From contig JAMPAJ010000002.1 in assembly GCA_023667265.1 (NCBI GenBank), positions 101,334 through 165,333 on the forward strand: DNA of 64,000 nucleotides. The letters run 5' to 3'. The stretch's first letter is position 1. Each line of letters starts with the position of its first letter. The stretch comes from Alistipes sp. (lineage in GTDB: Bacteria; Bacillota; Clostridia; Oscillospirales; Ruminococcaceae). Under the pieces are notes generated by a model, which saw only the letters and a program-made list of their open reading frames with translations, did not search any database and was not told the origin of the DNA. Positions 9,436 through 57,377 of the stretch are shown in pieces. The position numbers and the translations under genes are program-made.

Positions 9436-9651
9436 GGTGAGCTGCAATGACTGATAAGAAAAAATTGGGAAAGTTCAGCTCCGCACACAAGAGAACAGAA
9501 AAAGATATTAAGTGGTATATTCGTTATCTTTATGTTGGCAAAGAGCCGAATTTAAAGCGTGTGGGCGGTTCAGGCAGCGGAAAAACAAGATTTTTTATAA
9601 AGCCAAATCTTATGCCGAAGAAGTGAGGTGAGCTGCAATGACTGATAAGAA
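9432..9651 (+). repeat. 29-bp direct repeat (9432-9460 and 9623-9651) duplicating the virD4 translation start
   Basis: GTGAGGTGAGCTGCAATGACTGATAAGAA present twice, exact. Confidence 0.9.
9447..9626 (+). CDS. 59-aa mini-ORF with the VirD4 start and Walker A segment
   Basis: MTDKKKLGKFSSAHKRTEKDIKWYIRYLYVGKEPNLKRVGGSGSGKTRFFIKPNLMPKK*; same RBS as virD4. Confidence 0.55.
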   Translation: MTDKKKLGKFSSAHKRTEKDIKWYIRYLYVGKEPNLKRVGGSGSGKTRFFIKPNLMPKK

Positions 9652-11476
9652 GAAAAAACCTCTTATTTCTCCCGACAGTATTCTCGGAAAAATGCTTGCG
9701 GACTTGAAAAAAGTTTTTAAGAGGAAAGCAAAGTTTGATAAAAAGACGGTTATCGGACTTTTGCCGCTGATTATTATCGCTTGGTTGGGAAATAAAATTT
9801 ACTGCGCTTACAGACTTAACGGTCTGACAATGGAAATGTTCACAGCGGTGAACGATATGTTTTCAAATCCCGTGCCGAGTTTCAATAAATCTGATTTACT
9901 GGCAGGACTTGTAGCGGCGGCAGCTTTCAAGCTGTTTCTGTATATCAAGAAGAAAAACAAGAAAAACTACCGAGATAAGGAAGAATACGGCTCTGCACGT
10001 TGGGGAACGGCAAAGGATATTGAACCGTATGTTGATACGGAAAATCCCCAAAACAATATAATCCTCACTCAGACCGAGAGCCTGACTATGAACGGCAGAG
10101 TGCCAAATCCGAAATATGCCCGAAATAAAAACATACTTATTGTGGGCGGTTCGGGCAGCGGCAAAACAAGATTTTTCGTAAAGCCTAACATTATGCAAAT
10201 GCACAGCAGCTATGTTGTTACCGACCCGAAAGGCACGATAGTTTTGGAGTGCGGAAAAATGCTCCAAAAAGCAGGATACCGCATAAAAGTCATAAATACG
10301 ATAAATATGGACAAGTCAATGCACTACAATCCTTTTGCCTATCTGCACGGTGAGGAAGATATTCTGAACCTTGCAAACACCATTATCACCAACACCAAAG
10401 GCGAGGGAGACAAAAGCGGCGAGGACTTTTGGGTAAAGGCTGAAAGACTGCTGTATGTTGCATTTATCGCCCTTATATATTACGAATTTCCCGAAGAAGA
10501 AAAGAATTTCGGTACGCTGTTATGGCTTATAAACCAGTGTGAAACACGGGAGGACGACGAAACGTTCAAGAACCGTGTTGACCTTACTTTTGAGCTGCTT
10601 GAAAAGAAAAAGGGCGAAGACCATTTCGCGGTAAGGCAGTACAAAAAATACAAACTTGCGGCAGGAAAGACCGCAAAATCTATCCTTATTTCGTGCGGCG
10701 CGAGACTTGCGCCGTTTGACATAGAAAAAGTCAGAAAAATGATGACTTACGACGAAATGGAACTTGATACGCTCGGAGACCCCGACCAAAAGACGGCTCT
10801 GTTCGTGATAGTTTCGGACACGTCGGCAACATTTAACTTTATTATTGCGATGTTGTACACACAGCTTTTCAATCTGCTCTGTACCGTCGCTGATGATAAA
10901 TACGGCGGCAGACTGCCTACGCACGTTCGCTGTCTGCTTGATGAGTTTGCGAACATCGGGCAAATCCCGAATTTTGACAAGCTCATAGCCACTATCAGAA
11001 GCCGTGAAATATCGGCAAGTATCATTTTGCAGTCCAAATCGCAGCTTAAAGCGATTTATAAAGATAACGCCGACACCATAATCGGCAACTGCGACACAGA
11101 ACTGTTTCTCGGCGGAAAGGAAAAGTCAACGCTCAAGGAGTTATCCGAAATTTTAGGTAAACAGACTATTGACCTTTTCACCACATCGGAAACAAGAGGA
11201 CAGTCGCAGTCATCGGGGACTAACTACAACAGAACAGGGAGGGAGCTGATGTCACAGGACGAAATCGCGGTAATGGACGGCGGCAAGTGCATTATGCAAA
11301 TCAGAGGAACGAGAGCTTTTTTCTCCGATAAATTTGACATTACAAAGCACGAACGCTACAAGGAATTATCGGATTTCGACCCTAAAAACACATTTGACAT
11401 AACGGGATATGTCAAAGCAAACGCTAAAATCAAGAAAAACGACGAAATAGAAATCATGTCCCGAATGGTTTTCTGA
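9638..11476 (+). CDS. virD4: Type IV coupling protein VirD4/TraG
   Basis: N-terminal TMs, YGSARWG, Walker A GGSGSGKT, LLDEFANIG, RSREIS..LQSKSQL. Confidence 0.95.
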   Translation: MTDKKKKPLISPDSILGKMLADLKKVFKRKAKFDKKTVIGLLPLIIIAWLGNKIYCAYRLNGLTMEMFTAVNDMFSNPVPSFNKSDLLAGLVAAAAFKLFLYIKKKNKKNYRDKEEYGSARWGTAKDIEPYVDTENPQNNIILTQTESLTMNGRVPNPKYARNKNILIVGGSGSGKTRFFVKPNIMQMHSSYVVTDPKGTIVLECGKMLQKAGYRIKVINTINMDKSMHYNPFAYLHGEEDILNLANTIITNTKGEGDKSGEDFWVKAERLLYVAFIALIYYEFPEEEKNFGTLLWLINQCETREDDETFKNRVDLTFELLEKKKGEDHFAVRQYKKYKLAAGKTAKSILISCGARLAPFDIEKVRKMMTYDEMELDTLGDPDQKTALFVIVSDTSATFNFIIAMLYTQLFNLLCTVADDKYGGRLPTHVRCLLDEFANIGQIPNFDKLIATIRSREISASIILQSKSQLKAIYKDNADTIIGNCDTELFLGGKEKSTLKELSEILGKQTIDLFTTSETRGQSQSSGTNYNRTGRELMSQDEIAVMDGGKCIMQIRGTRAFFSDKFDITKHERYKELSDFDPKNTFDITGYVKANAKIKKNDEIEIMSRMVF

Positions 11477-11507: not shown

Positions 11508-11729
11508 ATGTCATTTTTTACAGACGCAGTAGGAGTATTACAAACGGTACTTACACTTATAGGCGCAGGCTTAGGCGGTTGGGGAATTGTTAATCTTCTC
11601 GAAGCCTACGGTTCTGACAATGCCGGAGGAAAATCTCAGGGTATGAAGCAGCTTATGGGCGGTGGCGGAATTATTCTTCTCGCTCAGATACTCATTCCTA
11701 AGCTGAACGGTCTTATGTCAACGTCCTGA
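11508..11729 (+). CDS. Maff2 family protein (VirB2-like pilin)
   Basis: AGLGGWGIVNLLEAYGSDNAGGKSQGMKQLMGGGGI; position directly after virD4. Confidence 0.85.
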   Translation: MSFFTDAVGVLQTVLTLIGAGLGGWGIVNLLEAYGSDNAGGKSQGMKQLMGGGGIILLAQILIPKLNGLMSTS

Positions 11730-11747
11730 TGTGTCACCGTGACACAC
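11729..11747. repeat. ICE palindrome copy 1
   Basis: ATGTGTCAC-C-GTGACACAC, directly at the Maff2 stop codon. Confidence 0.9.
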
Positions 11748-11757
11748 TTTAATTAAG

Positions 11758-19820: not shown

Positions 19821-20148
19821 GAAAACTTTGGCTCTGATTGCTTTTGGTTCTTTTGCAGGAATAGCTTTGCGGTCTCAGAGTAAACGTCAACAGGCAAAAA
19901 GGTATATTGAAGCTATCACTGAAATACTTGACAATAAAGAAGTTACCGACTTTGAAAGTTTTTCTGATTATTTGCTTGAGTATTACGGAATTACCGCAAA
20001 AAACATTTGCGGGAATGTGGTTGAGTATTCTGCAAAACAGAACAGCGCAATGATAAGCGAGGATTTACGGAAATACGGCAGCAGCGGTTACGGTTACGAT
20101 ATGGGCGAGTTGGAAACTTTCTTCTCCTCTAACCGTATGTTGGTATGA
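19813..20148 (+). CDS. Hypothetical protein
   Basis: ORF overlaps the upstream stop and has RBS GGAGG; N-terminal hydrophobic segment. Confidence 0.6.
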   Translation: MNKKTLALIAFGSFAGIALRSQSKRQQAKRYIEAITEILDNKEVTDFESFSDYLLEYYGITAKNICGNVVEYSAKQNSAMISEDLRKYGSSGYGYDMGELETFFSSNRMLV

Positions 20149-20149
20149 A

Positions 20150-20168
20150 GTGTGTCACGGTGACACAC
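20150..20168. repeat. ICE palindrome copy 2 (perfect)
   Basis: GTGTGTCAC-G-GTGACACAC, 1 bp after a stop codon. Confidence 0.95.
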
Positions 20169-20226
20169 TGAAAAATCCGTCCCGTTTTTAGTCGGGACGG
20201 ATAAAATTTTGAAAGGATTTGATTGT

Positions 20227-22551
20227 ATGAAACTCATAATCGCGGAAAAGAAAAGCGTAGGAGAAACAATCGCTAAAGTGCTTGGAGCAAAAAGCAAAAA
20301 CAACGGATACATAGAGGGAGACGGATATATCATTTCTTGGTGTCAGGGACATCTTGTAGGACTTTCTCTACCTGATAGCTACGGCGAACAGTATGAGCAT
20401 TACTGGACGTTTGACAATCTTCCCATTATTCCGCAGGAATGGAAGTTTGAAACCGACAGCAGCAAGGTAAAACAGCTTAAAATTCTAAAAGACCTTATGT
20501 TCAACAATTCAGTTGACGAAATAATATGCGCCACTGACGCAGGACGTGAGGGCGAGTGCATTTTCAGATATGTGTATAATTTTGTAGGCTGCCGGAAGCC
20601 TGTCAAGCGTTTATGGATTTCGTCAATGGAGGATACGGCTATTAGTGAGGGTATGCGGAATTTATTGCCTAAAAGTAATTACGACAACCTTTTTGCTGCC
20701 GGACTGTGCAGAGCCAAAGCCGACTGGCTTGTGGGTATGAACGCTTCTCGCTTGTTTTCCAACCGTTACGGAGCTGTCCTGAATGTGGGACGTGTTCAGA
20801 CCCCTGTGCTTGCAATGGTGGTAAAGCGTGATTATGATATTGCTCATTTCATCAAGCAGAAATTCTATAACGTCTCTTTGAACTGCGGTGATTTTGACGT
20901 AACTTCCGAAAGAATTGAAGATGAAAGCACTGCTATTGAAATTGCCAAAAAATGCGGCGGCAAAACGGCAACAGTTACCAAAGTTGAAAAAGAGATAAAA
21001 AACGAAAATCCACCAAAGCTGTACGACTTGACTACTCTCCAAAGAGAAGCCAACAGGCAGTTTGGCTACACGGCAAAGCAGACCCTTGAATATTTGCAGT
21101 CGCTGTATGACAATAAACTCGCTACATATCCCCGAACAGACAGCCAATATCTGACCGAGGATATGGAACAGACCGCGCTTGATATGATTAAAACTGTTCA
21201 GCAAGTCATTCCCGAATTTAATTTCGGAATTGAAAATCCGAACGTTAAACGCTGCCTTAACAACAAAAAGGTATCAGACCACACGGCGGTTATCCCCACT
21301 GCCGAAATCGCAAACGCTGACATTGAGGGACTGCCGACCGGAGAGAAAAATATTCTTTTCCTCATAGCCGCAAAACTTCTCATCGCAACAGCAGAACCTC
21401 ACAAATATGAAGCTGTGAAAGTTACGGTCAATTCAGAGGAATATGACTTTTTTGCAAGAGGAAAAACCGTTATTTCAAACGGTTTTAAGGATATTGAGAG
21501 CCGCATAAAGTCCCAGCTCAAAGGCGAAAACGAAGTACCCGAAAAAGAAACCGCTTTACCTGAACTTTTTGAGGGACAGAAGTTTGAACACGCTTCATCA
21601 ACAGTAACAAGCGGTTACACTACCCCGCCGAAAGCCTATACGGAAGATACCTTGCTCAAAGCTATGGAAACAGCAGGAAATACCGATTACGACGAAAATT
21701 CCGACGTTGAGAAAAAAGGCTTGGGTACTCCTGCAACGAGAGCCGATATTATTGAAAATCTTGTAAAGCGCGGATATATTGTGCGTGAAAAGAAAAAAGT
21801 CACGGCTTCTGAAAAAGGTATACATCTGATTGAGGTCGTTCCCGATGAAGTAAAATCCGCTAAACTTACTGCCGATTGGGAAACGACATTGCAGCACATT
21901 GAAAGGGGACAGGCTTCTCCCGACAGCTTTATAACTGAAATTGAGGATTTCACAAAAGAACTGGTGAATAAATATGCCGAAAAAGCGGACGGTCAAGTTT
22001 TTGCCAAAGAGAGAGAAATACTTGGCAAATGTCCTCGGTGCGGCAAGAATATTTATGAGGGAAAACAAAATTATTACTGTGAGAGCGGAAAAGACGGTTG
22101 CGGCTTTACAGTTTGGAAAAATCAGAAATATCCAAACACAACAGTTTCAGCGGCTCAAATGAAAGAGCTTTTGTCGGCAGGAAAAACAAGGCTTAAAGCC
22201 GTATCGAAAGAGGGCAAGGAATACACAGCGGATTTTGCTCTTGAAGATACGGGGAAATACATAAATCTTGTTTTTCTTCCTGCCGAAAATGAAGCCTTGG
22301 GCAAATGCCCGAAATGCGGCGGAGACGTTCTGAAAGGTCAGTACGGCTTTTGCTGCAAAGATAAGTGCGGAATGAACATCGGCAAGGTTTACGGCAAAAG
22401 CCTGACGGAAACACAAGTGAAAAAGCTGCTTAGCGGCAAGGAAACCTCTTATACTGCAAATGACAAGAAAGTCATTGTGCTGCCGGAGGTCTTTGAGAAC
22501 AATTATCAGGGAAAGATTTTCTTTCAATGGAAAACTAAGAGGTCGGAGTGA
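20227..22551 (+). CDS. topB: DNA topoisomerase III (type IA)
   Basis: MKLIIAEK, CATDAGREGE, GRVQTP, catalytic TYPRTD, GLGTPATR, C-terminal CPxC zinc ribbons. Confidence 0.95.
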   Translation: MKLIIAEKKSVGETIAKVLGAKSKNNGYIEGDGYIISWCQGHLVGLSLPDSYGEQYEHYWTFDNLPIIPQEWKFETDSSKVKQLKILKDLMFNNSVDEIICATDAGREGECIFRYVYNFVGCRKPVKRLWISSMEDTAISEGMRNLLPKSNYDNLFAAGLCRAKADWLVGMNASRLFSNRYGAVLNVGRVQTPVLAMVVKRDYDIAHFIKQKFYNVSLNCGDFDVTSERIEDESTAIEIAKKCGGKTATVTKVEKEIKNENPPKLYDLTTLQREANRQFGYTAKQTLEYLQSLYDNKLATYPRTDSQYLTEDMEQTALDMIKTVQQVIPEFNFGIENPNVKRCLNNKKVSDHTAVIPTAEIANADIEGLPTGEKNILFLIAAKLLIATAEPHKYEAVKVTVNSEEYDFFARGKTVISNGFKDIESRIKSQLKGENEVPEKETALPELFEGQKFEHASSTVTSGYTTPPKAYTEDTLLKAMETAGNTDYDENSDVEKKGLGTPATRADIIENLVKRGYIVREKKKVTASEKGIHLIEVVPDEVKSAKLTADWETTLQHIERGQASPDSFITEIEDFTKELVNKYAEKADGQVFAKEREILGKCPRCGKNIYEGKQNYYCESGKDGCGFTVWKNQKYPNTTVSAAQMKELLSAGKTRLKAVSKEGKEYTADFALEDTGKYINLVFLPAENEALGKCPKCGGDVLKGQYGFCCKDKCGMNIGKVYGKSLTETQVKKLLSGKETSYTANDKKVIVLPEVFENNYQGKIFFQWKTKRSE

Positions 22552-22850
22552 TATTAGAAAAAATCATATTGCTGTGGCACACTCAAAAAAAAGGACGGAG
22601 GTATACAACCTTGCTTGAAACTGTTTTTGTATTAATTGCTTTGCTGTTGATACTTATAATTTTTTTGTTTGGTGTTGGACTTTCTTTTATGATGTTGGCA
22701 GTTATAATTTTTAAAATACGTAGTATTTTAAATAAGAGAAAAATTTACAAAAAACTACGTTCAAAGTTTGCTATTGACAAGAGCGAAAAGGAGCTTGACG
22801 AGCTTGCGGAAAAGCTGCTGACAGAATATTTTGAGAGTGTGTCACGGTGA
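22548..22850 (+). CDS. Small membrane protein fused to a copy of the ParB C-terminal tail
   Basis: AT-rich TM region followed by FAIDKSEKELDELAEKLLTEYFESVSR, identical to the end of 47663-49600. Start may be TTG at 22611. Confidence 0.65.
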   Translation: MILEKIILLWHTQKKGRRYTTLLETVFVLIALLLILIIFLFGVGLSFMMLAVIIFKIRSILNKRKIYKKLRSKFAIDKSEKELDELAEKLLTEYFESVSR

Positions 22851-22855
22851 TACAG
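22837..22855. repeat. ICE palindrome copy 3
   Basis: GTGTGTCAC-G-GTGATACAG, overlapping the stop codon. Confidence 0.85.
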
Positions 22856-22871
22856 TCAGAAAAGAATAAGG

Positions 22872-23117
22872 GTGAAGACTATGTCATTAATTGAGTATAT
22901 AAATAATATTTTTGCAAATATAGATGTTTTTCTATTTATAATATTATGTGTTTTTTGGGGTAGCACTCTGTTATTTATTATTGCAAATTCACTTGAAATT
23001 AGATATAACGATGTTTACGACGAATTTTTGTCAAGGTCTGATATTGATATGAGCGAACAAGAGTTTTATGAGCTTACCGAAAATCTGCTGACAGAATATT
23101 TTAAAGATGTAACATAG
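22872..23117 (+). CDS. Small membrane protein with a diverged ParB-tail copy
   Basis: TM segment, then SRSDIDMSEQEFYELTENLLTEYFKDVT. Confidence 0.6.
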   Translation: MKTMSLIEYINNIFANIDVFLFIILCVFWGSTLLFIIANSLEIRYNDVYDEFLSRSDIDMSEQEFYELTENLLTEYFKDVT

Positions 23118-23125
23118 TGACACAC
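23107..23125. repeat. ICE palindrome copy 4 (degenerate left arm)
   Basis: ATGTAACAT-A-GTGACACAC, followed by TTATAAAGGAGG, similar to what follows parB. Confidence 0.6.
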
Positions 23126-23147
23126 TTATAAAGGAGGATAGTATATA

Positions 23148-23408
23148 ATGTTATCTATTGTGTTGATAATTATGAAGGTATTGCCGTTTATTACCAGTCT
23201 TATATTAGCTATTCAAATTCCAAGTAATAAATCACTGTGTAAAAAAGAAAAAGTAATTCTTTTTATTATACTTGTAGTTTGTATGGTAAATTGTCTTTTG
23301 ATGTCAATTACAACTAATATAATTTTATTATCAGGAATTATGGTAATTCAATTAGCATTCGCTGGTCTTATGCTTTTTATGATAATGGCAGATGACGACA
23401 AAAATTAA
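23148..23408 (+). CDS. Small multi-TM hypothetical protein (AT-rich)
   Basis: RBS AAGGAGG; three hydrophobic segments. Confidence 0.65.
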   Translation: MLSIVLIIMKVLPFITSLILAIQIPSNKSLCKKEKVILFIILVVCMVNCLLMSITTNIILLSGIMVIQLAFAGLMLFMIMADDDKN

Positions 23409-23427
23409 TTGTGTCACAGTAACACAC
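23409..23427. repeat. ICE palindrome copy 5
   Basis: TTGTGTCAC-A-GTAACACAC, immediately after a stop codon. Confidence 0.8.
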
Positions 23428-23467
23428 TCGAACATTATAAACGTTCCGTAAAGAAAGGATAAATATT

Positions 23468-24736
23468 ATGAATTTTATGCGTAAAACAAATAATCTTGCT
23501 GACAAAGATATTCACAATAACATCATACTGACAGACGATGTTCAGTTATCGCTCAATCCTGTGAAAACTGGAAAAAATCTGAATGTATGTGTTTTCGGCG
23601 GTGGAGGAACGGGCAAAACACAGAATTACGTTCTGCCGAATATTTTACAGGCAAACACCTCATACGTCATAACAGACCACGGCGGATATTTGTTGAACAA
23701 AACAAGAAAATTCCTTGAAGAACAAGGTTATGTTATCAAAGTTCTGAACCTGAATGATACCGAAAATTCAAACCACTACAATCCGTTTGACTATGTATAT
23801 GACAAGGACGGCGTTTGTAATGAAGCTGACGTTACAAAAATGGTTGAAATGATTTTAGCAACGCCAAAAACAGCAGCGAAAAAGACTTCTCTTGCAGGTC
23901 AAATTACAGACGATATGATGTGTATCCTTGTTTCCGCAATCTGTTTTTATCTATTTGAAATGGGAAGCAAAGAAAATCGTAATTTTCAAAATGTAATCAG
24001 ACTATTAAGTATGCCTGTTTCGGAACTTGACGAAATTTTTCTTATGCCCGATGAAAAAGTAAAGTTCTTATCTCTGAAACGTTATATGCTGTTCAGAAAA
24101 GCGGCAAAAGTGGAAGAAATTGCAGAAACCATACGCATTAAAGCACTTAACAGACTGGGTGCGTTTACTCAGACAGATATAACTAATCTAACACAATTTG
24201 ACGATATGGAACTTGACCTCATAGGAGACAGAAAAACAGCGGTTTTTATTCCGCTCCCGACTTTCAACCACAGTCTTAATTTTCTTACAAGCGTTCTGAT
24301 TACACAAATATTCAATGTATTATGCGGCAGGACTAAAGCACTGCCAAATAGCAAATTGCCTGTTCACGTTCGCTTTATGCTTGATGAATTTGCCAACTGC
24401 GGCTATATTCCCGATTTTGAAAAGTATGTTGCAGTATGCGGTTCTCACAATATAAGTTTTAATATTATCTTACAGTGCGTTGAGCAACTGCAAACGCTTT
24501 ATAAACATTGGGATATTATACTGAATTGTTGCGACAGCAGATTATATCTCGGCGGTTTAAATATTGGAACATTGCACAACATTTCTGAAACTGTCGGCAG
24601 CCAAATGAGTGTTGATGAATTTCTTGCAATAAATAATCACAACAAATGCGTTTTAAACGTTCGCGGTCTGCCGACGTTTTGCGGTAATAAGTTTGACGTT
24701 GAAAAACATTTTAACTATGACAAGATTGAAGAATAG
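23468..24736 (+). CDS. Second, soluble VirD4/TraG-like ATPase lacking the N-terminal TMs
   Basis: NLNVCVFGGGGTGKTQNYVLPNILQ, SNHYNPFDY, HVRFMLDEFANCG, ILQCVEQLQTLY. Confidence 0.8.
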   Translation: MNFMRKTNNLADKDIHNNIILTDDVQLSLNPVKTGKNLNVCVFGGGGTGKTQNYVLPNILQANTSYVITDHGGYLLNKTRKFLEEQGYVIKVLNLNDTENSNHYNPFDYVYDKDGVCNEADVTKMVEMILATPKTAAKKTSLAGQITDDMMCILVSAICFYLFEMGSKENRNFQNVIRLLSMPVSELDEIFLMPDEKVKFLSLKRYMLFRKAAKVEEIAETIRIKALNRLGAFTQTDITNLTQFDDMELDLIGDRKTAVFIPLPTFNHSLNFLTSVLITQIFNVLCGRTKALPNSKLPVHVRFMLDEFANCGYIPDFEKYVAVCGSHNISFNIILQCVEQLQTLYKHWDIILNCCDSRLYLGGLNIGTLHNISETVGSQMSVDEFLAINNHNKCVLNVRGLPTFCGNKFDVEKHFNYDKIEE

Positions 24737-24754
24737 TGTGTCACTGTGACACAC
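24736..24754. repeat. ICE palindrome copy 6 (perfect arms)
   Basis: GTGTGTCAC-T-GTGACACAC, sharing the G of the stop codon TAG. Confidence 0.95.
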
Positions 24755-24836
24755 GACATAATAAACACAGCAATTAACACACGAATATAATCCCTATGGG
24801 GTTATAAAATATAAAAATAAAAGGAGCAAAAAATCT

Positions 24837-25310
24837 ATGAAACACACAAAAAAGGCACTCGCACTCACATTGGCGGCAGTAATGGGACTGTCAGCCGCAC
24901 CAACGTTAAGCTGCTCGGCAGCGGAACGAACAGAGCTTGAAAAAACATATTTCAGCTCTACATACGAAGAACCGTATACCCTTGAATTTATCGTTATTAT
25001 GTGGTCTGAAAACGATAACGGGGAGCTTGCCATAACAGGCTGTTCCCCAATGTGGTCAAGCAGAGTAAGCGACTATCCGACGTCTAACGTCATCGGTGGA
25101 TTTGTTTTTAACGGTACGCTGAAACTGCCCTCGCATATTAACGGCAAGCCGGTCACGGAAATAAGCGGAGTTAATATTGCAAAATCGGTAGGCGCAAACA
25201 CGGTTATAATCAACGAAAACATTACGGAAATTTCAGACAATGCTTTCGGAAAAGGTATAACGGTTATGACTACTGATAAGGAACTCAAACAATCGCCCAT
25301 TTATTATTGA
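24837..25310 (+). CDS. Secreted protein with a BspA/LRR_5-like remnant
   Basis: Signal peptide; LKLPSHINGKPVTEISG...VIINENITEISDNAF. Confidence 0.65.
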   Translation: MKHTKKALALTLAAVMGLSAAPTLSCSAAERTELEKTYFSSTYEEPYTLEFIVIMWSENDNGELAITGCSPMWSSRVSDYPTSNVIGGFVFNGTLKLPSHINGKPVTEISGVNIAKSVGANTVIINENITEISDNAFGKGITVMTTDKELKQSPIYY

Positions 25311-25389
25311 TTTTTCTCACGGCAATTTAATATTACGGTTAAGGGAGTATGCGTTTGTGTACTCCCTTTTTTGTTTCGGGAGGTGGAAA

Positions 25390-25620
25390 ATGTATCAGGT
25401 ATTATTTGTTCTTATGGTCTGCGAATTTTCGGCGGACATTCTTAAAAGTATGTGCAATAGGCAAAAAAATATTCTTGAAGAAAAAGCGGCATATCTTTCT
25501 CCGAAAGAAAAATTCAGATATGAACGGAAAATCCGTATTTCAGGTTTTTTTGAAAAATTCTTGAAATATGGCGGTATAGTCTATGCCGTGCCGGCAGCTA
25601 TATTGGTTATTATTTCTTAG
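25390..25620 (+). CDS. Small membrane hypothetical protein
   Basis: RBS GGAGGT before MYQVLF; hydrophobic ends. Confidence 0.5.
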   Translation: MYQVLFVLMVCEFSADILKSMCNRQKNILEEKAAYLSPKEKFRYERKIRISGFFEKFLKYGGIVYAVPAAILVIIS

Positions 25621-25632
25621 AAAGGAGAAGAA

Positions 25633-26670
25633 ATGGACGTATTAAGTTTGTTTGACGGTATTTCCTGCGGAATGGTCGCATTGGAACGTTCGGGAATACC
25701 CGTTGAAAAGTATTCAGCGTATGAAATTGATAAATACGCTTTGACAGTTTCAAAGAAAAACTATCACAAAATAGAACAGTACGGAGACGTATTCGAGGGC
25801 AGTTTCAAAAAACATAAAGGCTGTGATTTGCTTATCGGCGGCTCTCCATGCACTTTTTGGAGTGTTGCTAAAAGAGACAGAGAAACAACTCCAGACGGTG
25901 AGGGGTTCAAAATGTTTATGCAGTATGTCAGAGCCTTAGAAGAAAGCCGTCCGAAATATTTTCTTTATGAGAATAACAACAGCATACATAAGGATATAAA
26001 GACGGAAATATCTAAATTCTTAGGTGTTGAGCCGATTATGATTAACTCCGCTTTGGTGTCCGCACAGCATAGAAAAAGATGTTACTGGACAAATATTCCG
26101 AATGTAACACAGCCGGAGGACAAAGGCATTTTGCTTAAAGATATTATCATCAGCGGCATTCCTTGGCAGGACAAGTCTTATGCCTATACAACAAGATGTC
26201 AGGCTGCAACGTTTAAAGATACACTTGAACGTCACAGACATACAATGATTGCCGAGCCTGTCATACTTAACGATATAAACGGAAAAGCACGGACAATAAA
26301 AGCGCAGTATAAAAATACGGGTATTCCAAACGCCGTTCGTACAGACGGTTTTGGCGCAACTATGGTCGCAGTACCTGTCAAAATCGGACAAATAGGAAAG
26401 TATCAACAGGACAGAGTGTATTCGGTTTACGGAAAGTCGGTTTGCCTAAAAGCCAACGGCGGAAACGGTGCAAAAACAGGTCTGTATAAAATTGACTTGC
26501 CCGACGGAGATTACATAATCCGCAAGCTGTACCCTATCGAAGCGGAACGTCTGCAAACGCTCCCCGACAATTACACGGAGGGAGTTTCAAACACTCAGAG
26601 ATACAAGGGTATCGGAAACGGTTGGACTGTTGACGTTATCGCTCACATTCTTGGATTTATTCCGAAATAA
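25633..26670 (+). CDS. Orphan DNA (cytosine-5)-methyltransferase
   Basis: Motif I LSLFDGISCG, motif IV GGSPC, motif VI YENN, C-terminal ERLQTLPDNY..IGNGW. Confidence 0.92.
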   Translation: MDVLSLFDGISCGMVALERSGIPVEKYSAYEIDKYALTVSKKNYHKIEQYGDVFEGSFKKHKGCDLLIGGSPCTFWSVAKRDRETTPDGEGFKMFMQYVRALEESRPKYFLYENNNSIHKDIKTEISKFLGVEPIMINSALVSAQHRKRCYWTNIPNVTQPEDKGILLKDIIISGIPWQDKSYAYTTRCQAATFKDTLERHRHTMIAEPVILNDINGKARTIKAQYKNTGIPNAVRTDGFGATMVAVPVKIGQIGKYQQDRVYSVYGKSVCLKANGGNGAKTGLYKIDLPDGDYIIRKLYPIEAERLQTLPDNYTEGVSNTQRYKGIGNGWTVDVIAHILGFIPK

Positions 26671-27431: not shown

Positions 27432-27453
27432 TATTTTAAAAATCATACATAAG

Positions 27454-27472
27454 GTGTGTCACGGTGACACAC
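27454..27472. repeat. ICE palindrome copy 7 (perfect)
   Basis: GTGTGTCAC-G-GTGACACAC, just before the RBS of the toprim gene. Confidence 0.95.
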
Positions 27473-27489
27473 CTTGAAAGGAGAAAATA

Positions 27490-33400: not shown

Positions 33401-36400
33401 AAGCCAAAACTTACTCCGAAATCACAAGGGATATGTACCAAACAGAAAATCCCGATATATTTACCGTTAAGGGCAAAGGCAGCTTTGCAAAAATTGATAT
33501 TACGGTCAATGCGGAGCTGTGGGAAAGGCTTGCCGAAAAGGGACTTGTACGGAACGAGAACAGTGTTGACAGGGTAATTTTCAATATTGATAACAAGGAA
33601 TGGAACAAACTTGTAATTCCCGATAAATGGGGAAATATGACCAACAATATCAATATCGAGGACGTTTTTACCAGTGAGGAATTGCAGACAGCTAAATCTG
33701 TTGCGGATTTTGTTATCGGAAATGAGGATATTCAGCAAGTGCTTGACAATTTCAATGAGGATATAACTCCTGTTGAAAATAATACGTCATTTTCGGAGGA
33801 AATAAGCGGCAGTAACGGCACTGTCAAATATAAGGTAACGGAAAACGCTGACGAGCAGTACAAATATAATGTGCAGATATTCACTCAGGGGGAGAACGGC
33901 GAATTTTATTACAGCGGCTTAGGTCGCTTCTGCGAAACGCTTGATGAAGCTCACGCTTTTATTGAAAATGATATTGCAGAGCGTACTGCCGCAAAGGATA
34001 GGCAACATTCCGATAAGGACGAAATCACCGGAAACGATGAATATAACATTTCACAGGGACAGATGTCACTGTTTGATGATATTCCGGATATAGAGGAAAT
34101 TCCCAATGAAAGAAACTATCAGGTTGTTACTTATTCTCGTGATTTGGGTGCAGATGACAAAAAGATTTTTTCAACATTGGACGAAGCCGTTGAAAGCGGC
34201 AGAGGATATTTGTATGACAAGGAACACGAGGGTTATTATTCGGGCATTGCCATTCTTAACACAAAAGAACAAAAGGTTGAATATTATGAGGGTGATTTCC
34301 CGTTAGAGGGTATTTTCAGCGAACAGGTATACCAAAACAGCGGTAATTGGCAGAGAGCCGAGCCAATTCCAAACTTACTGTTTGACAAGTTTGATGAGCA
34401 TTACAACGAAATGTATAAAAATCACGATGAAGTCAACGGTTATGACGAAGCGGTCGCTGTCGGTGACAAATTTATTAGGGAAAATCCCGATATTATGGAA
34501 AGAATAGCAAATTCCAGAAATGATGTTATTACCAGTGACCGTGAAGCAGCAGCTCTCGCATTTGCACTTGCCGACGTGGGTATGATTGACAAATTTGTTG
34601 AACCTGAACAGTCTAAACAACAGAAAGTTCAGCAGAATTTAGTTACATCGGTGCATACTGAACAATCGCCGTTAAATCCGGAACGTGTCACGGTGACACA
34701 CTCCGAAGCTGCAAAAGTGCCTGACATTGATGTTGAAAAGCCGGAAGAAAAGAAAACCAATAACCTTTTCCGCATAACAGACGAGCATTTGGGCGAGGGC
34801 GGCAAAAAGGAAAAATTCAGGAATAACATTGAAGCTATAAAAACGCTGCAAATCCTTGAAGCCGAAGAACGCGCCGCAACTCCCGAAGAACAGGAAACAC
34901 TGTCCAAATATATCGGCTGGGGCGGTTTGCAGGAAGCGTTTGACAATTCTCTCTCCGCTTGGGATACGGAATACCGCGAACTTAAAAATCTTCTTTCCGA
35001 GGAAGAATACGAAGCCGCACGGTCTACCGTAAACGACGCGTTTTACACTTCTCCGGTCATAACACAGGCAATTTATGAGGGACTTGCGAACATCGGATTT
35101 AACGGCGGAGAAGTCCTTGAGCCGTCAATGGGTGTGGGAAACTTTTTCGGAACTATGCCCGATAAAATGCGTGAAAACAGCAATCTGTCGGGAATTGAAA
35201 TCGACAGCATTTCGGGACGTATCGCCAAAAAGCTCTATCCCGAAGCGGATATTGCCATAAACGGCTATGAAAATATAAAGCTGACCAAAGGCTCTTTTGA
35301 CTTGGCTGTGGGCAACGTTCCGTTCGGAAATCACGGTGTAAACGACAAAACAAAGGCATACAAAGGACTTCTGATACACGACTACTTCTTTGCCAAATCC
35401 CTTGACAGCGTTCGTTCGGGCGGTATTGTTGCTTTTGTAACGTCAACGGGTACGCTCGATAAAGACGATACGAAAGTCCGTCAAATGCTTGCACAGAAAG
35501 CGGAGCTTTTGGGCGCGGTCAGACTGCCTAACAATGCTTTTCAGAAAAACGCAGGAACACAGACGGCAACCGATATTATCTTTCTGAAAAAGCGTGAAAA
35601 ACCGCTTAATATCAGCGAAATGCCTATGGATAAATCCTGTGAATGGGTGCATACAAAGGAAAACGCCGACGGTCTGAAAATAAACAGCTATTTTGCCGAC
35701 AATCCCGAAATGGTTTTAGGCGAACTTTCCGACAAGGGACGTTTCGGCAGTATAATATGCACTCCCGTTCAGGGCGCAGACCTTAAAGAACAGCTTCACG
35801 AAGCTATGAAAAATATCAAGGGAGAATACGTTCCCCTTGAATTTCAGCAGGAGCTTGACGAACGTGCGGAAAATAACTATCTGACCGCAACTCCCGATAT
35901 TGAAAATCTGACCTATACTGTTGTGGACGATAAGCTGTATTTCCGTGTTGACGATAACCTTATTCCGCTGAAAGAAAGCGAACAGCACGGAGTGACCGCA
36001 GACCGCCGCAAAGGTTTGTGCGATTTGGGTTTAACCGTCAGGGAGCTTTTGAAAGCGCAAGTCGAGGACAGACCCGACAAGGAAATAAAGCTGCTGCAAG
36101 CGGAGCTTAACGTTAAGTATGATAAATTCGTTCAGAAATTCGGACGGATAAATCCCACGGAAACGCCAAACTCAAGAAATGCAAGCGGAGTTACAAGAAA
36201 AGCTCCCAACAGCAACGTTTTCAAAAACGACGTAAGGCTGCCGCTTTTGCAGTCCCTTGAAAAAATGAAAGAGGGGCAGTTTGTAGGCAAAACAGAGATA
36301 TTCACCGAAAGAACCATACGTCCCCGTAAGGTAGCGGAACACGTTGAAACCGCTCACGAAGCATTGATTTTGTCAATATCCGAAAAGGGAAAAATTGACT

Positions 36401-42056: not shown

Positions 42057-42057
42057 A

Positions 42058-42076
42058 GTGTGTCACCGTGACACAC
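42058..42076. repeat. ICE palindrome copy 9 (perfect)
   Basis: GTGTGTCAC-C-GTGACACAC, 1 bp after a stop codon. Confidence 0.95.
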
Positions 42077-42238
42077 TGTGAAAGGCGGCGGTCGGATTGA
42101 TTGTATAAGTTTAATCTCGGACTTTTTTACACACAAATATAAACAATCGGAGAAAATTCAGACGGAATATTCAAACATAATTTTATGACAATTGAATGAC
42201 GTATATTTTCTCCTCACACTTGAAAGTGAGGAATTACT

Positions 42239-45814: not shown

Positions 45815-45949
45815 AAAATTTTTCCTTTCGATGTATTGACGAAAGGGTATCAAATGTGTTATAATAACACTGTCGGACACCTTTCGTCCGTCGGACAGGG
45901 CAGAACCGGAAGTGTGGAGCTTGGTGGTCTGTCCTGTTTTATTTTTGAA

Positions 45950-45968
45950 GTGTGTCATCGTTACGCAC
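45950..45968. repeat. ICE palindrome copy 10 (degenerate)
   Basis: GTGTGTCAT-C-GTTACGCAC, 7 bp beyond the stop of 45976-46377. Confidence 0.7.
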
Positions 45969-45975
45969 TTTTTTG

Positions 45976-46732: not shown

Positions 46733-46749
46733 TGGTTTTTCCTTTCCGA

Positions 46750-46768
46750 GTGTGTCACCGTGACACAC
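46750..46768. repeat. ICE palindrome copy 11 (perfect)
   Basis: GTGTGTCAC-C-GTGACACAC, overlapping the stop of 46768-47253. Confidence 0.95.
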
Positions 46769-47253
46769 TACTCTTGCTCTGAATTGCCTGTCAAATCCTT
46801 GCTGTCAAAATAATCACCGATACTGTAAGAATTATAAACATCTTCGCTCACATCAAAATGATTGCTGCCTTGGTGTGTTTCTCCGTCATACTCAAATTCC
46901 GCGCTGATATGTATGCGGTAGACCGTAGGAACATAGCTTTTATTGCCGTTAAAGCTGTAACCGACCTTGCCGTCATAATAACCCACTCCTGCGCCGCCGG
47001 CTGTGTGTCCGTTGATTATTTCCTTGTCTGTTATAATTCCTGCCGAAACGCTCGCTTTAGAGTTGTATCTCATGCTGTTGCCTAAGCTATCAAAAACTCT
47101 ATCGAGAGCAATCCAACCTCCAATAATTATAAGGACAAGTGCTGCCATTTTAGAAAAAAGCAATATCATTTCTGCAAAGTCGAAATTAGTGTTTTTTCTC
47201 ACAGTATCTTCGGTTTCTTCTGTACTTTCATTCATTTCGTCAAACTCTGTCAT
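46768..47253 (-). CDS. Membrane-anchored hypothetical protein (DUF2500-like)
   Basis: One TM, then GIITDKEI...YRIHI...FDVSEDVYNSYSIGD. Confidence 0.6.
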   Translation of the reverse strand: MTEFDEMNESTEETEDTVRKNTNFDFAEMILLFSKMAALVLIIIGGWIALDRVFDSLGNSMRYNSKASVSAGIITDKEIINGHTAGGAGVGYYDGKVGYSFNGNKSYVPTVYRIHISAEFEYDGETHQGSNHFDVSEDVYNSYSIGDYFDSKDLTGNSEQE

Positions 47254-47273
47254 TTTAATTTTTTTCTTTCCGA

Positions 47274-47292
47274 GTGTGTCACCGTGACACAC
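47274..47292. repeat. ICE palindrome copy 12 (perfect)
   Basis: GTGTGTCAC-C-GTGACACAC; shares the flank TTTCCGA with copy 11. Confidence 0.95.
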
Positions 47293-47303
47293 TTTCTCAT
47301 AGA

Positions 47304-47639: not shown

Positions 47640-47657
47640 AAAATAACCTCCTTTATA

Positions 47658-47676
47658 GTGTGTCACCGTGACACAC
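47658..47676. repeat. ICE palindrome copy 13 (perfect)
   Basis: GTGTGTCAC-C-GTGACACAC, overlapping the last codons and stop of parB (SVSR*). Confidence 0.95.
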
Positions 47677-49600
47677 TCTCAAAATATTCCGTCAGCAGCT
47701 TTTCCGCAAGTTCGTCAAGCTCCTTTTCACTCTTGTCAATAGCAAACCTTGAAAAAATATTGTTGTAAACATTGCTCTTGTATTTCTTCAAAGGTTTCGG
47801 CGCAAGCAGCTTTGTAAATTCGTGGAACGGAACGTCCTCGCCGCCGTAAGTCTCTACGATTTGAGCAAACTCCTTTGCAATTTCGGGAGTGATTTTCTTG
47901 CTGTCGGGACGTGAAAGAAAATTCAGAACCGCTTTTTGATTTCCCTCCGAAAATGCCGCTATGATTTCGGCGGCGGCAAGCTGAATTTTTCCCTCGTCCG
48001 CATATTTCTGTAAATGAACATTCAGACTTGCTACACTTATGTAACGGTACATAGTCTTTTTCGATACTCCGAATTTAGCGGCAATTTCAGCGGCTGTCAT
48101 ATCAGTATCAGCACGCTTATCCATATATGCGGAGAATATTTTTCCGTACTCACTGGGCAAAGTCCTGTCCCTCTGAATATTGCTCTCTGCAACAATTTTA
48201 AAGGCTTCATCGTCTGTGATTTTTCTAACCACGCAAGGTACGGAAAGCAGATTAAGCTGCCGTGCCGCTTCATAGCGGTGATGTCCTGCAATTATCTGAT
48301 AATTATTACCGTCAGTTTTGCGGACTATCAGGGGCGTTACAATGCCTATATCCTCGGCACTCGCCATAATCTGAGCTATCTTGTCACTGTTCAGATTAAA
48401 CGGCTGTGAACCGCCTTTCTCGTCCTCATAGTGGTGCAGCAGATTAAGCTCGATACTTTCAACCTTTTCAAAAGAACTGCCCCACACATTGTTATAGGAC
48501 TGCTTTAATGCTGTGTTTTCCGTATCGGTCTTTTGCTTTGCTTCAATTCGTTTTTGCATTGCTTCAACACGCTTCTTGTCAATATCAAGCGGATTTTCAG
48601 CAGTTATCGCTATCATGTCCAACGGGTCAAGACAGCCGTGTTCGCTTATTTCTGAAAAGCGTGATAAATCAAGTTTTCCCATATTATTTTCCTTTCTGTA
48701 AATATTGTGCCGTCTGCAATAGTTATCCCACGTTTCGCTGCGGAATTTGCCGCTGTAAATAAATCTTTGTGCAAATTCCAACTGGATTTTATCAGGGATA
48801 ATACCCTTGCTTTCGTTTCTTTCCGCTTGGGCATAAAGCGTTATACCTTTGAATTTCTTTAGACGTTCCGCTCTTTCGGCTGCATTGTCAACGTCCTTTG
48901 TAACCAACAGATAAATAAACAGCCTGTAAGGTTTAACTCCGTATTTCATAAGAAGCTCCGCAGCATTTTCAATAGCTGCAATTTGCGCCGATGTATCGCA
49001 GCTGAACCGAATGTATTTTATCCATTTCAGCCGCGAGAGTATCTGCGCTATGCTATCGGTAACAAGACGTGCATCCATACCCTGATTAAGGTCAATAGCG
49101 TAACCGCTGTCAATCAGACTTTCGAGCTGCCGTATGCCGTATTCGCTTGCGAGAATGTTGTTGTCCATAAGCACAAGTTTACGGCTGTCAGGTCTTACAA
49201 GCTGCTCCCACGTTCTGTACGGCTTAATATTGCCCTCCTTTTCGGGAACAATGCACCAACGGCAATGATTGGGACAACCTCTCGTTATGTAGCCTATGGC
49301 GTAGTCACAGTCGGGATAAATACTGTAATCGGGAAACATTTCCTCAATTTCGGCAGGAAGAACGGAATGTATGTCATACCCCGTCCCTCCCTTGACCGTA
49401 TCGGGCGGCAGCAGAGGATTTTCGGGAGTAAAGTCAAAAATCTTGCTTGAATAGACCCTGTCGTATTTTTTCTCCGGCTGCCACCATTCAACGGTATCTC
49501 CAACAGATTTGTGATAAGCCGATATTTTCATAAGCGCGTAATTGGGGAACGTCTTTCTTTTCAGATATTCCTTTTCGCTGTCGTGTAGAGCGATGTTCAT
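47663..49600 (-). CDS. parB: Radical SAM protein fused in frame to a ParB/RepB/Spo0J-family protein (internal ParB start at 48682)
   Basis: N-half has CPNHCRWC (CxxxCxxC). C-half has GIVTPLIVR..IIAGHHRYEAA, ESNIQR and HTH MTAAEIAAKFGVSKKTMYRY. Internal RBS AGAAAGGA before MGKLDL. Confidence 0.85.
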   Translation of the reverse strand: MNIALHDSEKEYLKRKTFPNYALMKISAYHKSVGDTVEWWQPEKKYDRVYSSKIFDFTPENPLLPPDTVKGGTGYDIHSVLPAEIEEMFPDYSIYPDCDYAIGYITRGCPNHCRWCIVPEKEGNIKPYRTWEQLVRPDSRKLVLMDNNILASEYGIRQLESLIDSGYAIDLNQGMDARLVTDSIAQILSRLKWIKYIRFSCDTSAQIAAIENAAELLMKYGVKPYRLFIYLLVTKDVDNAAERAERLKKFKGITLYAQAERNESKGIIPDKIQLEFAQRFIYSGKFRSETWDNYCRRHNIYRKENNMGKLDLSRFSEISEHGCLDPLDMIAITAENPLDIDKKRVEAMQKRIEAKQKTDTENTALKQSYNNVWGSSFEKVESIELNLLHHYEDEKGGSQPFNLNSDKIAQIMASAEDIGIVTPLIVRKTDGNNYQIIAGHHRYEAARQLNLLSVPCVVRKITDDEAFKIVAESNIQRDRTLPSEYGKIFSAYMDKRADTDMTAAEIAAKFGVSKKTMYRYISVASLNVHLQKYADEGKIQLAAAEIIAAFSEGNQKAVLNFLSRPDSKKITPEIAKEFAQIVETYGGEDVPFHEFTKLLAPKPLKKYKSNVYNNIFSRFAIDKSEKELDELAEKLLTEYFESVSR

Positions 49601-55673: not shown

Positions 55674-57377
<1,704 letters not shown>

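Follow-up and report, generated by a model that had tools for sequence, protein, structure and literature searches.

Copies of a ParB C-terminal tail and an adjoining palindrome at the ends of small predicted membrane-protein genes in a Ruminococcus conjugative element

The free C-terminal domain of B. subtilis ParB acts as a dominant negative in vivo as well as in vitro, and in engineered form it makes mixed dimers with full-length ParB and disrupts its networks and foci (PMC5731820). The module described here, which we call the tail, resembles that domain in its place at the extreme C-terminus, behind a flexible linker, of a protein that has ParB_N and helix-turn-helix (HTH) domains, and a protein with the module only could similarly form mixed dimers with full-length ParB. 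The tail differs in being a helix-loop-helix of 37-40 residues without a sequence match to solved ParB domains or Pfam. Moreover its copies are natural, fused to membrane segments and known from sequence, where the ParB domain was engineered. The two genes that carry them, ORF1 and ORF2, keep the tail without ParB_N and HTH, in the manner of decoys that retain the oligomerization module of their partner.

A 21-bp palindrome, termed PAL, adjoins the tail. As with parS, the KorB OB sites of RK2 and the BisD clamp of ICEclc (PMC12409273), a ParB homologue on a mobile element is accompanied by a single palindrome in about a dozen dispersed copies. Unlike parS, PAL has an extra central base pair and is a candidate ParB site, and it lies between a stop codon and the next ribosome-binding site (RBS) rather than at promoters. 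We know of no parallel to a recombination-junction role in the parS, KorB OB or BisD systems. The first parS to be described lies inside spo0J, and similarly one copy of PAL is located at the 3' end of parB. Noc has an N-terminal amphipathic helix of its own that tethers it to the membrane. Were ORF1 to pair with ParB, a ParB-family DNA-binding complex would likewise be held at the membrane, but the membrane segment would come in trans, from a separate small protein sharing just the C-terminal module. The solved Noc structures matched in our searches are of the truncated body.

There is also a likeness to integron cassettes and attC sites, in that the units are mostly promoterless single genes in one orientation, with a palindromic site as the exact boundary of gain and loss. 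However, PAL is a near-perfect palindrome, whereas attC is an imperfect one of 57-141 bp with R and L box structure. The arrays here lie inside the backbone of a conjugative element with a large serine recombinase at its end, in which we found neither an integron integrase nor attI nor Pc.

The window analyzed is a stretch of 64,000 nucleotides from a cellulosomal Ruminococcus. An integrative and conjugative element takes up about 50 kb of it, roughly from 7.0 to 57.4 kb. ParA is encoded at 50149-50928. The serine recombinase (55692-57377) is the sole recombinase seen, and the window proteins scanned include no tyrosine integrase. The features under discussion are as follows.

22574-22601, plus strand: degenerate right half-PAL (GTGGCACACTC), A-run and RBS GGACGGAGG located 5' of ORF1, with the PAL-then-RBS layout of other copies
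22611-22850, plus strand: ORF1, 79 aa, with a predicted long hydrophobic helix, a basic juxtamembrane stretch (KIRSILNKRKIYKKLRSK) and the ParB tail; its stop is inside PAL
22734-22854, plus strand: tail copy 1, which agrees with the 3' end of parB at 88% of its 121 nt and at 87/91 over the last 91 nt
22836-22856, plus strand: imperfect PAL after ORF1 (AGTGTGTCACGGTGATACAGT; GTGATAC)
22881-23117, plus strand: ORF2, 78 aa, with a hydrophobic segment (residues about 16-36) and a diverged tail (RYNDVYDEFLSRSDIDMSEQEFYELTENLLTEYFKDVT)
23007-23137, plus strand: tail copy 2 with the right half-PAL GTGACACAC (23117-23125) and ATAAAGGAGG (23128-23137), an RBS context also seen 3' of parB
23148-23408, plus strand: ORF3, an 86-aa polytopic hydrophobic protein without tail, the next cassette; a similar 3' end adjoins PAL in the related locus L045
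23408-23428, plus strand: PAL variant (GTGTCACAGTAACAC) that bounds the CD1115-type VirD4 cassette on the left
23468-24736, plus strand: VirD4-like coupling protein of the CD1115 family, 422 aa, without N-terminal membrane domain (NCBIfam NF045973, Pfam T4SS-DNA_transf)
24735-24755, plus strand: PAL variant (GTGTCACTGTGACAC) that bounds the VirD4-like cassette on the right
47657-47677, minus strand: PAL copy (AGTGTGTCACGGTGACACACT on the sense strand) comprising the last three parB codons and stop (GTG TCA CGG TGA)
47663-49600, minus strand: donor parB, 645 aa, with a radical-SAM-like domain (CX3CX2C), ParB_N and HTH; the last 37-40 residues are the tail
47666-47779, minus strand: tail-coding segment of parB (KYKSNVYNNIFSRFAIDKSEKELDELAEKLLTEYFESVSR), encoding helix, loop (FAIDK) and helix

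We consider it probable that the cassettes ending in tail and PAL originated from a parB that ends within PAL, and plausible that ORF1 would pair with the tail of ParB and hold or titrate it at the membrane.

The first-pass annotation of this DNA had matched 22760-22850 to the 3' end of parB (47663-47753, minus strand) at 87 of 91 nt. We reproduce this match, and ungapped homology extends to 121 nt with 88% identity (22734-22854 against 47659-47779). Three of the four mismatches within the 91 nt are synonymous, and the fourth exchanges K and R. The last 27 residues of ORF1 are exactly those of the resident ParB. A second, diverged copy had been placed at the end of the next gene. It is indeed there, with 53% protein identity to the ParB tail over 36 residues, and its DNA homology passes through GTGACACAC into ATAAAGGAGG as it does 3' of parB, but just half of the palindrome remains. 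The palindrome earlier ascribed to both membrane genes is thus imperfect after ORF1 and reduced to its right half after ORF2. A DNA pattern for tail plus palindrome found three sites in the window, i.e. the parB end and the two copies, against 0 expected, and tblastn within the window found no fourth tail copy.

ORF1 had been started at GTG 22548. The most likely start is TTG 22611, with the RBS GGACGGAGG 9 nt upstream; a 2-nt deletion at 22592 in a second allele would break the longer frame. For ORF2 the start moves from 22872 to ATG 22881, from which it is called in the public protein collection (P0010). ORF1, ORF2 and ORF3 are consecutive and non-overlapping on the same strand and fill the interval, each preceded by a purine-rich Shine-Dalgarno-like stretch that is strong for ORF1 and ORF3 and weak for ORF2. 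No promoter or terminator signal was found interrupting the operon before 25341. ORF1 and ORF2 are probably real genes, and would be translated as single-pass membrane proteins. The hydropathy of ORF1 reaches a maximum of 3.3, and AlphaFold2 predicts helices at residues 2-53 and 59-78 (mean pLDDT 87), with a confident helix-loop-helix. The positive-inside pattern would place the tail of ORF1 in the cytoplasm. ORF2 has no such charge signal, and its orientation is uncertain. Neither protein has ParB_N or HTH, the tail being the only part of ParB carried. No homologue was found for their 5' (membrane) parts, related loci included, and megablast of 20000-26000 against plasmid and phage collections gave no match. 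Searches of Pfam, NCBIfam and PDB matched neither the tail nor ORF1-3.

A second allele (X2, X3) keeps ORF1-3 intact, with ORF1 and ORF2 diverged by 3-7%. ORF1 of X2 has 16 substitutions, and 26 of its last 27 residues are those of the resident ParB. ORF2 has 10 substitutions, nine of them within its first 41 codons; the 37 tail codons have just one, and it is synonymous (Fisher p = 0.02). Between the alleles there are three substitutions in 192 nt of tails compared with 23 in the remaining 279 nt (p = 0.0016), and the sole indel lies outside the ORFs. Whole-ORF dN/dS, calculated from just 10-16 substitutions between two alleles, is about 0.6, compatible with weak constraint. Divergence is 5-fold higher in the ORF region than in its flanks. 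The low divergence of the ORF1 tail could stem from gene conversion by parB instead of selection; the ORF2 tail has no donor for conversion within the element. It had been considered that the chimera might be unique to this strain. We find two alleles in two to three samples, from one organism and one study, and no further relatives among 1.84 billion representative proteins. No RNA run was found to contain the region.

The donor gene was earlier labeled simply parB. It does have ParB_N (Pfam, 5e-16), together with HTH_ParB, an NCBIfam parB_part match above cutoff and matches to ParB/Spo0J/Noc in PDB at 1e-13, but the 645-aa product is a fusion of ParB_N and HTH to a radical-SAM-like domain, for which the Pfam match is weak. 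In AlphaFold2 the 315-aa ParB part ends with helices at 280-289 and 295-314 (pLDDT 80-94). A fold search with the ParB model matched ParB, Noc and KorB structures, all C-terminally truncated, and reported only the ParB body. Most of 49 ParB homologues keep the tail, including standalone ParBs of 300 aa encoded after ParA, and in most the order is ParB_N, HTH, a helical region, a Pro/Lys linker and the tail at the extreme C-terminus. Its helices are amphipathic, with a conserved hydrophobic pattern. Among ParB orthologues the dN/dS of the tail, a measurement proposed in the first-pass annotation, is 0.07-0.12 with dS of 0.3-1.7, and the constraint is therefore on protein and not DNA. Judged from these alignments, the tail is a native, conserved C-terminal helix-loop-helix module of the ParB family of Ruminococcus-type conjugative elements. 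A Pfam scan of the tail with E up to 10 found no family, and its profile found no sequence match in PDB to solved structures or characterized ParB C-terminal domains. Because of this we infer self-association or dimerization of the tail from its location, where the C-terminal domain of a ParB would be.

parB ends (VSR-stop) inside PAL. The window contains 11-12 copies of PAL against 0.6 expected, scattered between genes from a stop codon to the next RBS, and those in the AT-rich ORF1-ORF2 zone are degenerate. With the exception of L027, every related ParB-bearing locus fetched contains PAL. Its half-site TGTGTCAC agrees with that of parS (TGTTNCAC) at 7/8 positions, such that compared with the parS consensus TGTTNCACGTGAAACA PAL has half-sites matching at 7/8 plus the extra central base pair, giving a 17-bp core. 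PAL was not found in the literature searched. A role at the RNA level, whereby the central base would always follow gene direction, was weakened by three opposite-oriented copies, with same-strand genes, in L030.

PAL is the exact junction of cassette presence or absence between related elements. The zone 3' of parB is variable across these, with PAL between cassettes. In L045 the VirD4-like cassette is missing, and PAL is the exact junction; L046 has a VirD4-like orthologue in the same slot with a different left neighbor, and again the junction is at PAL; L028 has an inserted cassette between two PALs. The possibility that the VirD4-like gene is a truncated pseudogene was rejected, as its product matches the CD1115-family model NF045973 from position 1 of the model, at 309 bits where the cutoff is 250, and has the orthologue in L046.

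The tail with PAL is found behind at least five 5' parts, unrelated to one another and spread over different elements; those of ORF1 and ORF2 are two of them. P0003 is a 135-aa non-ParB protein with the tail followed by PAL, and comparison with its tail-less homologue P0004 places the left junction in a 6-nt microhomology, AATACA. P0012 (L028) is a Cro/C1 HTH protein with the tail and then PAL, and P0041 (L029), a remnant, is a relaxase fragment with the same ending. In all the chimeras the tail is in frame and the segment adjoins PAL. The P0012 tail is about 50% diverged from that of the neighboring resident ParB. In 14 related loci no tail chimera was present up to 10 kb from parB. Of 21 matches to the tail-plus-PAL DNA pattern in genome contigs 19 were due to chance, and the two real ones (L007 and L010) are both parB ends; a metagenome scan gave two further parB ends and nothing else. 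The tail was not found in viral contigs, and a word-indexed protein search with a 41-column tail alignment gave no match. The exhaustive profile search used all 135 columns, not the tail alone, and its many matches to the unrelated N-terminal domain of P0003 were sorted by matched positions. A survey of related elements for the chimera, as earlier suggested, yields other tail fusions, with the membrane chimeras found in a single organism. Further fragment chimeras occur in these elements, at 9447-9626 of the window and as a ParA/VirD4 mosaic in L044.

The first-pass annotation had also suggested a recombination hotspot that seeds new genes. This is supported by the nativeness of the tail to ParB, the five unrelated 5' parts, the 6-nt microhomology and the role of PAL as cassette junction. 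In the origin that we propose, related elements would gain and lose cassettes at the PALs scattered between their genes. The tail would have been copied onto ORF1 and ORF2 because parB ends inside the repeated palindrome at which elements swap cassettes. As the tail is directly upstream of PAL, a single illegitimate (microhomology) join upstream of it would suffice to create a new cassette of 5' gene part, tail and PAL, which could then be moved elsewhere by PAL-to-PAL exchange. Two such cassettes would be ORF1 and ORF2, whose zone, between topoisomerase III and the VirD4-like gene, is variable. The donor of the ORF1 tail would have been a parB about 95% identical to that of the resident element, and the ORF2 tail would stem from an earlier capture or from a different one. 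Exchange at PAL may proceed by RecA homology, by template switching at hairpins or through a dedicated enzyme.

What the chimeras do may be read in several ways. ORF1 and ORF2 might be functionless by-products, open because they are young, with T-rich filler as their 'membrane' parts. The orphan 5' parts, the degenerate PALs, the dN/dS and the raised divergence of this zone are all in keeping with such debris, as are the other fragment chimeras (9447-9626, the L044 mosaic and the relaxase-tail remnant P0041). Yet the interval is filled by three same-strand ORFs with Shine-Dalgarno-like stretches, and in DNA of about 33% GC their runs of 51-86 codons free of stops would arise by chance with a probability of roughly 0.001-0.02 each, as estimated from local base composition; moreover the only indel avoids the ORFs, and the tails, including the donor-less one of ORF2, are significantly less changed than the 5' parts. 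We therefore regard debris as possible, if somewhat unlikely. Conservation of tails while membrane parts vary would also be expected were the chimeras selected as dedicated partners of ParB, either as membrane anchors that keep ParB-bound DNA of the element near the conjugation machinery or as decoys that, by capping the C-terminal domain of ParB, would weaken the complex it forms for partition or regulation. Pairing of ORF1 with ParB, as anchor or decoy, is plausible because their tails are nearly identical. The basic stretch that predicts a cytoplasmic tail, the position in a conjugation operon beside a VirD4-like protein lacking its membrane domain, and the dominant-negative behavior of the free B. 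subtilis domain (PMC5731820) point the same way. Nevertheless the chimeras are sporadic, and the tails of ORF2 and of the L028 HTH protein differ by about half from those of their resident ParBs, so that a selected role as ParB partners seems rather unlikely.

For those two proteins self-association fits better than ParB binding, given this divergence of about 50%. The tail may be a generic module that dimerizes or oligomerizes any fusion partner, with no targeting of ParB, useful to a Cro/C1 HTH repressor or to small membrane proteins. Its amphipathic helices and conserved hydrophobic pattern, and the suitability of an HTH-plus-tail architecture for a dimeric repressor, are consistent with this. 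However, the ORF1 tail is almost that of the resident ParB, and if it self-associates then cross-pairing would be hard to avoid; as a general account this is unlikely. Lastly the segment might belong to an extended cis site, such as a centromere, an operator or the context of an RNA hairpin, with its coding incidental. It always adjoins PAL, which has parS-like half-sites and a 9-bp hairpin of about -12 kcal/mol, and close orthologues hardly differ at the DNA level over the last 15 parB codons. But synonymous sites vary freely while amino acids are kept, other PAL copies have no upstream similarity to the tail, the tail is always in frame, and the hairpin z-scores (about -1.2 to -1.6) are unremarkable. 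A DNA- or RNA-level element is therefore disfavored as very improbable. Our preferred reading is the parB-in-PAL origin, in which ORF1 in particular would pair with a near-identical ParB tail such that ParB would be held or titrated at the membrane. In a bolder version, which we think doubtful, PAL would be the binding site of ParB and the tail a portable docking tag recruiting accessory proteins, i.e. membrane proteins and an HTH regulator, to ParB-PAL complexes. Here a dozen sites on the element DNA would be tethered to the membrane beside the VirD4-like protein, with PAL doubling as the homology for cassette swapping.

The locus offers a traceable case of a mobile element building new genes, in which a short conserved palindrome would act as a portable crossover point and unrelated genes receive the module encoded just upstream. 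Should that module still pair with ParB in its new setting, the chimeras would be the first counterparts in nature of the dominant-negative ParB C-terminal domain that was engineered, and would point to membrane tethering or titration of the ParB of a conjugative element. PAL itself, with its parS-like half-sites, about a dozen copies per element and exact boundaries, may merit more study than the chimeras.

The window carries a Firmicutes-type conjugative element. Its plus strand has the conjugation genes (full-length coupling protein, VirB6-like, VirB4-like and CD1107-like proteins), followed by topoisomerase III and three small ORFs, then a VirD4-like protein, and then a C5 methylase, a DUF3991-Toprim primase, a 3206-aa giant protein and a sigma factor. 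The other strand encodes a relaxase, NikA, ParA and a ParB fusion. The large serine recombinase and the dockerin-bearing flanking genes indicate an element of ~50 kb integrated in a cellulosomal Ruminococcus; close relatives are labeled Ruminococcus flavefaciens or Ruminococcus sp. The element has two coupling proteins, and an N-terminal membrane region is found in the longer of them but not in the shorter VirD4-like one. The features concerned are:

9638-11476, plus strand: 612-aa full-length coupling protein
22611-22850, plus strand: ORF1, 79 aa
22881-23117, plus strand: ORF2, 78 aa
23148-23408, plus strand: ORF3, 86 aa, polytopic
23468-24736, plus strand: 422-aa VirD4-like protein, CD1115 family
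47663-49600, minus strand: parB, 645-aa fusion of a radical-SAM-like domain, ParB_N and HTH
55692-57377: large serine recombinase

The ParB part of the fusion matches solved ParB, Spo0J and Noc structures at ~1e-13, and its AlphaFold2 model folds like them in a fold search. The radical-SAM-like domain at its N-terminus comprises ~300 aa with a CPNHCRWC motif, and the arginine patch of ParB is GHHRY, not GERR. Orthologous fusions occur in related loci L007 and L010 and in protein P0021, most homologues being standalone ParBs of ~305 aa.

The last 37-40 residues of ParB form what we call the tail, modeled by AlphaFold2 as a helix (280-289), a loop and a second helix (295-314) with pLDDT 80-94. 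The same tail ends the orthologous fusions of L007 and L010, a ParB fragment in L026, and a standalone 313-aa ParB downstream of ParA in L027. In an alignment of 49 ParB homologues reaching down to ~24% identity, most keep this C-terminal module after a Pro/Lys-rich linker, with the pattern [IVL]Y..[IL]...[FY].[IVF]..[ST][ED].[ED][LIV][DE].[LI]...LL.[ED]YF. From such sequence comparisons the tail belongs to ParB as a native part. The first-pass annotation had proposed measuring its dN/dS; among ParB orthologues this is 0.07-0.12 at dS 0.3-1.7, and the constraint is therefore on the protein and not on the DNA. The module matched no Pfam family and no solved structure, and its position and amphipathic character are the sole basis for a possible equivalence to the ParB dimerization domain.

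The tail is copied twice in the window. Reading both strands, 22760-22850(+) is identical to 47663-47753(-) at 87 of 91 nt, as the first-pass annotation had reported, the four differences being three synonymous changes and one K/R. With a repeat finder, the ungapped homology reaches 121 nt at 88% (22734-22854 versus 47659-47779). The diverged second copy described there at the end of the next gene also holds: the 3' end of ORF2 has 53% identity to the ParB tail over 36 residues, and the DNA similarity carries on across GTGACACAC and into ATAAAGGAGG, an arrangement also seen downstream of parB. A pattern of TEYF plus the palindrome has exactly three matches in the window (parB and the two copies) where none is expected, and tblastn found no fourth tail copy there.

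ORF1 most likely starts at TTG 22611, nine bases downstream of the ribosome binding site GGACGGAGG. The start at 22548 suggested previously is less likely, and a 2-nt deletion at 22592 in a second allele would destroy that longer frame. In ORF1 a single long hydrophobic helix is followed by a basic stretch and then the tail (AlphaFold2 model: helix 2-53, loop, helix 59-78; mean pLDDT 87). ORF2, called from ATG 22881 (P0010), has a single hydrophobic segment and an acidic tail; ORF3 lacks the tail. ORF1 and ORF2 share a reading frame (22611-23117(+)), with one TGA inside the palindrome and 10 sense codons between them; at one chance in three, coincidence is the probable explanation.

Whether these are real genes can be judged from the second allele, 93-99% identical on contigs of a second sample and likewise, at low depth, of a third. 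In favor, all three ORFs stay intact in this allele despite 16, 10 and 2 substitutions in ORF1, ORF2 and ORF3 respectively, and the sole indel lies upstream of the ORF1 TTG. Of the ORF2 substitutions, nine lie within codons 1-41, and the 37 codons of the tail have a single one, which is synonymous (p = 0.02); for ORF1 and ORF2 combined, avoidance of the tails gives p = 0.0016. Gene conversion cannot explain the stability of the ORF2 tail, because the element contains no donor for it. From topoisomerase III to 25341 there is no prominent signal resembling a promoter or terminator, consistent with co-transcription. Against real genes, whole-ORF dN/dS between alleles is only ~0.6, on few changes, and the membrane parts of ORF1 and ORF2 have no homologues among 1.84 billion representative proteins or in the related loci. 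Moreover, the segment from ORF1 to the 5' part of ORF2 (22536-23002) diverges by 7-8%, versus 1-1.5% in its flanks (topoisomerase III, ORF3 and the VirD4-like gene), which would reflect recombination in a local tract or else fast evolution.

The palindrome, PAL, is the 21-bp sequence AGTGTGTCAC-G-GTGACACACT, with 11-12 copies in the window versus 0.6 expected:

11728-11748, 20149-20169, 22836-22856, 23408-23428, 24735-24755, 27453-27473
34682-34702, 42057-42077, 45949-45969, 46749-46769, 47273-47293, 47657-47677

Copies are intergenic, except that parB and ORF1 each have their final codons and stop within one; the usual spacing is a few bases from the preceding stop codon and 8-15 bases to the following ribosome binding site. 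PAL occurs in all related elements fetched except L027, with 11 copies in 21 kb of L030. Its half-site TGTGTCAC agrees with the parS half-site TGTTNCAC (consensus from PMC7022226) in 7 of the 8 positions, and PAL has an additional base pair at its center. This provides a lead that PAL is a candidate binding site for the window ParB. The exact core gave no match in the literature searched. A GC-rich hairpin ATCCGTCCCGAC...GTCGGGACGGAT at 20170-20205(+), immediately following PAL 20152 and ahead of topoisomerase III, is conserved in the same place in L045 and L046.

Comparison of these two loci with the window indicates that PAL is the exact junction of cassette presence and absence. Between topoisomerase III and a conserved 157-aa gene they contain:

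Window: ORF1, ORF2, ORF3, VirD4-like gene
L045: 58-aa gene, DUF5052 gene
L046: 58-aa gene, DUF5052 gene, 450-aa gene, SSB, VirD4-like gene

The VirD4-like gene is a PAL-bounded cassette, present in L046 and absent from L045 exactly at PAL. In L045, sequence like the 3' end of ORF3 is joined via a single PAL to that following window PAL 24738. In L046 the right side of PAL 8430 matches that of window PAL 23411, and the left neighbor differs. Related elements also differ in this PAL-cassette manner downstream of parB.

The survey of related elements that had been proposed earlier reveals tail fusions to unrelated partners elsewhere. A profile search run exhaustively on 1.84 billion representative proteins, plus Pfam, places the tail on five non-ParB backgrounds, each followed by PAL:

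ORF1
ORF2
P0002/P0003, a 135-aa soluble protein, with a homologue (P0004) lacking the tail
P0012, a Cro/C1-type HTH protein
P0041, the N-terminal part of a MobA/VirD2 relaxase with ParB linker and tail

In L028 the HTH-tail cassette directly follows parB-tail-PAL and is closed by its own second PAL. Alignment of P0003, P0004 and parB DNA places the left join of P0003 in the microhomology AATACA. A deletion running from the relaxase gene to the 3' end of parB would seem to have produced P0041; these elements have the two genes arranged in that order and orientation. Across 14 related loci, the 10 kb around parB on either side showed no additional tails, and the captures are therefore sporadic.

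Other mosaics were also seen. A 59-aa ORF at 9447-9626(+), just upstream of the coupling-protein gene, is a fragment chimera reusing that gene's first codons (MTDKKK) and Walker A region (GGSGSGKTRFF), and a 126-aa ORF in L044 (1076-1456) is a ParA/VirD4 (coupling-protein)/ParA mosaic joined at P-loop motifs. In P0003-bearing elements a recurrent promoter-like motif, which includes a palindrome of its own (AAATGTAAATAGTGCTATAATAGCACAA), lies ahead of operons (L001 1-30, L001 690-725 and L004 400-435).

A recombinational origin of the tail chimeras is best supported by these comparisons, which lend support to the earlier suggestion of a recombination hotspot. Because parB ends inside PAL, the putative crossover point of the family, one microhomology join upstream of the tail would suffice to create a cassette of 5' part, tail and PAL, and PAL exchange could then relocate it. 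As to function, ORF1 and ORF2 may be membrane anchors or decoys for ParB. The position and amphipathic pattern of the helix-loop-helix tail suggest that it self-associates; if so, pairing of ORF1 with ParB at the membrane would be expected, since ORF1 and the resident ParB end in the same 27 residues. In B. subtilis an engineered free ParB C-terminal domain is dominant negative (PMC5731820). The tails of ORF2 and the HTH-tail protein are ~50% diverged from their resident ParBs, which would fit better with self-association than with ParB targeting.

Domain shuffling and cassette exchange on a conjugative element are processes already known, and a recombinational origin would make the tail chimeras a variant of both. 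The more unusual feature is the parS-like palindrome at the cassette boundaries.
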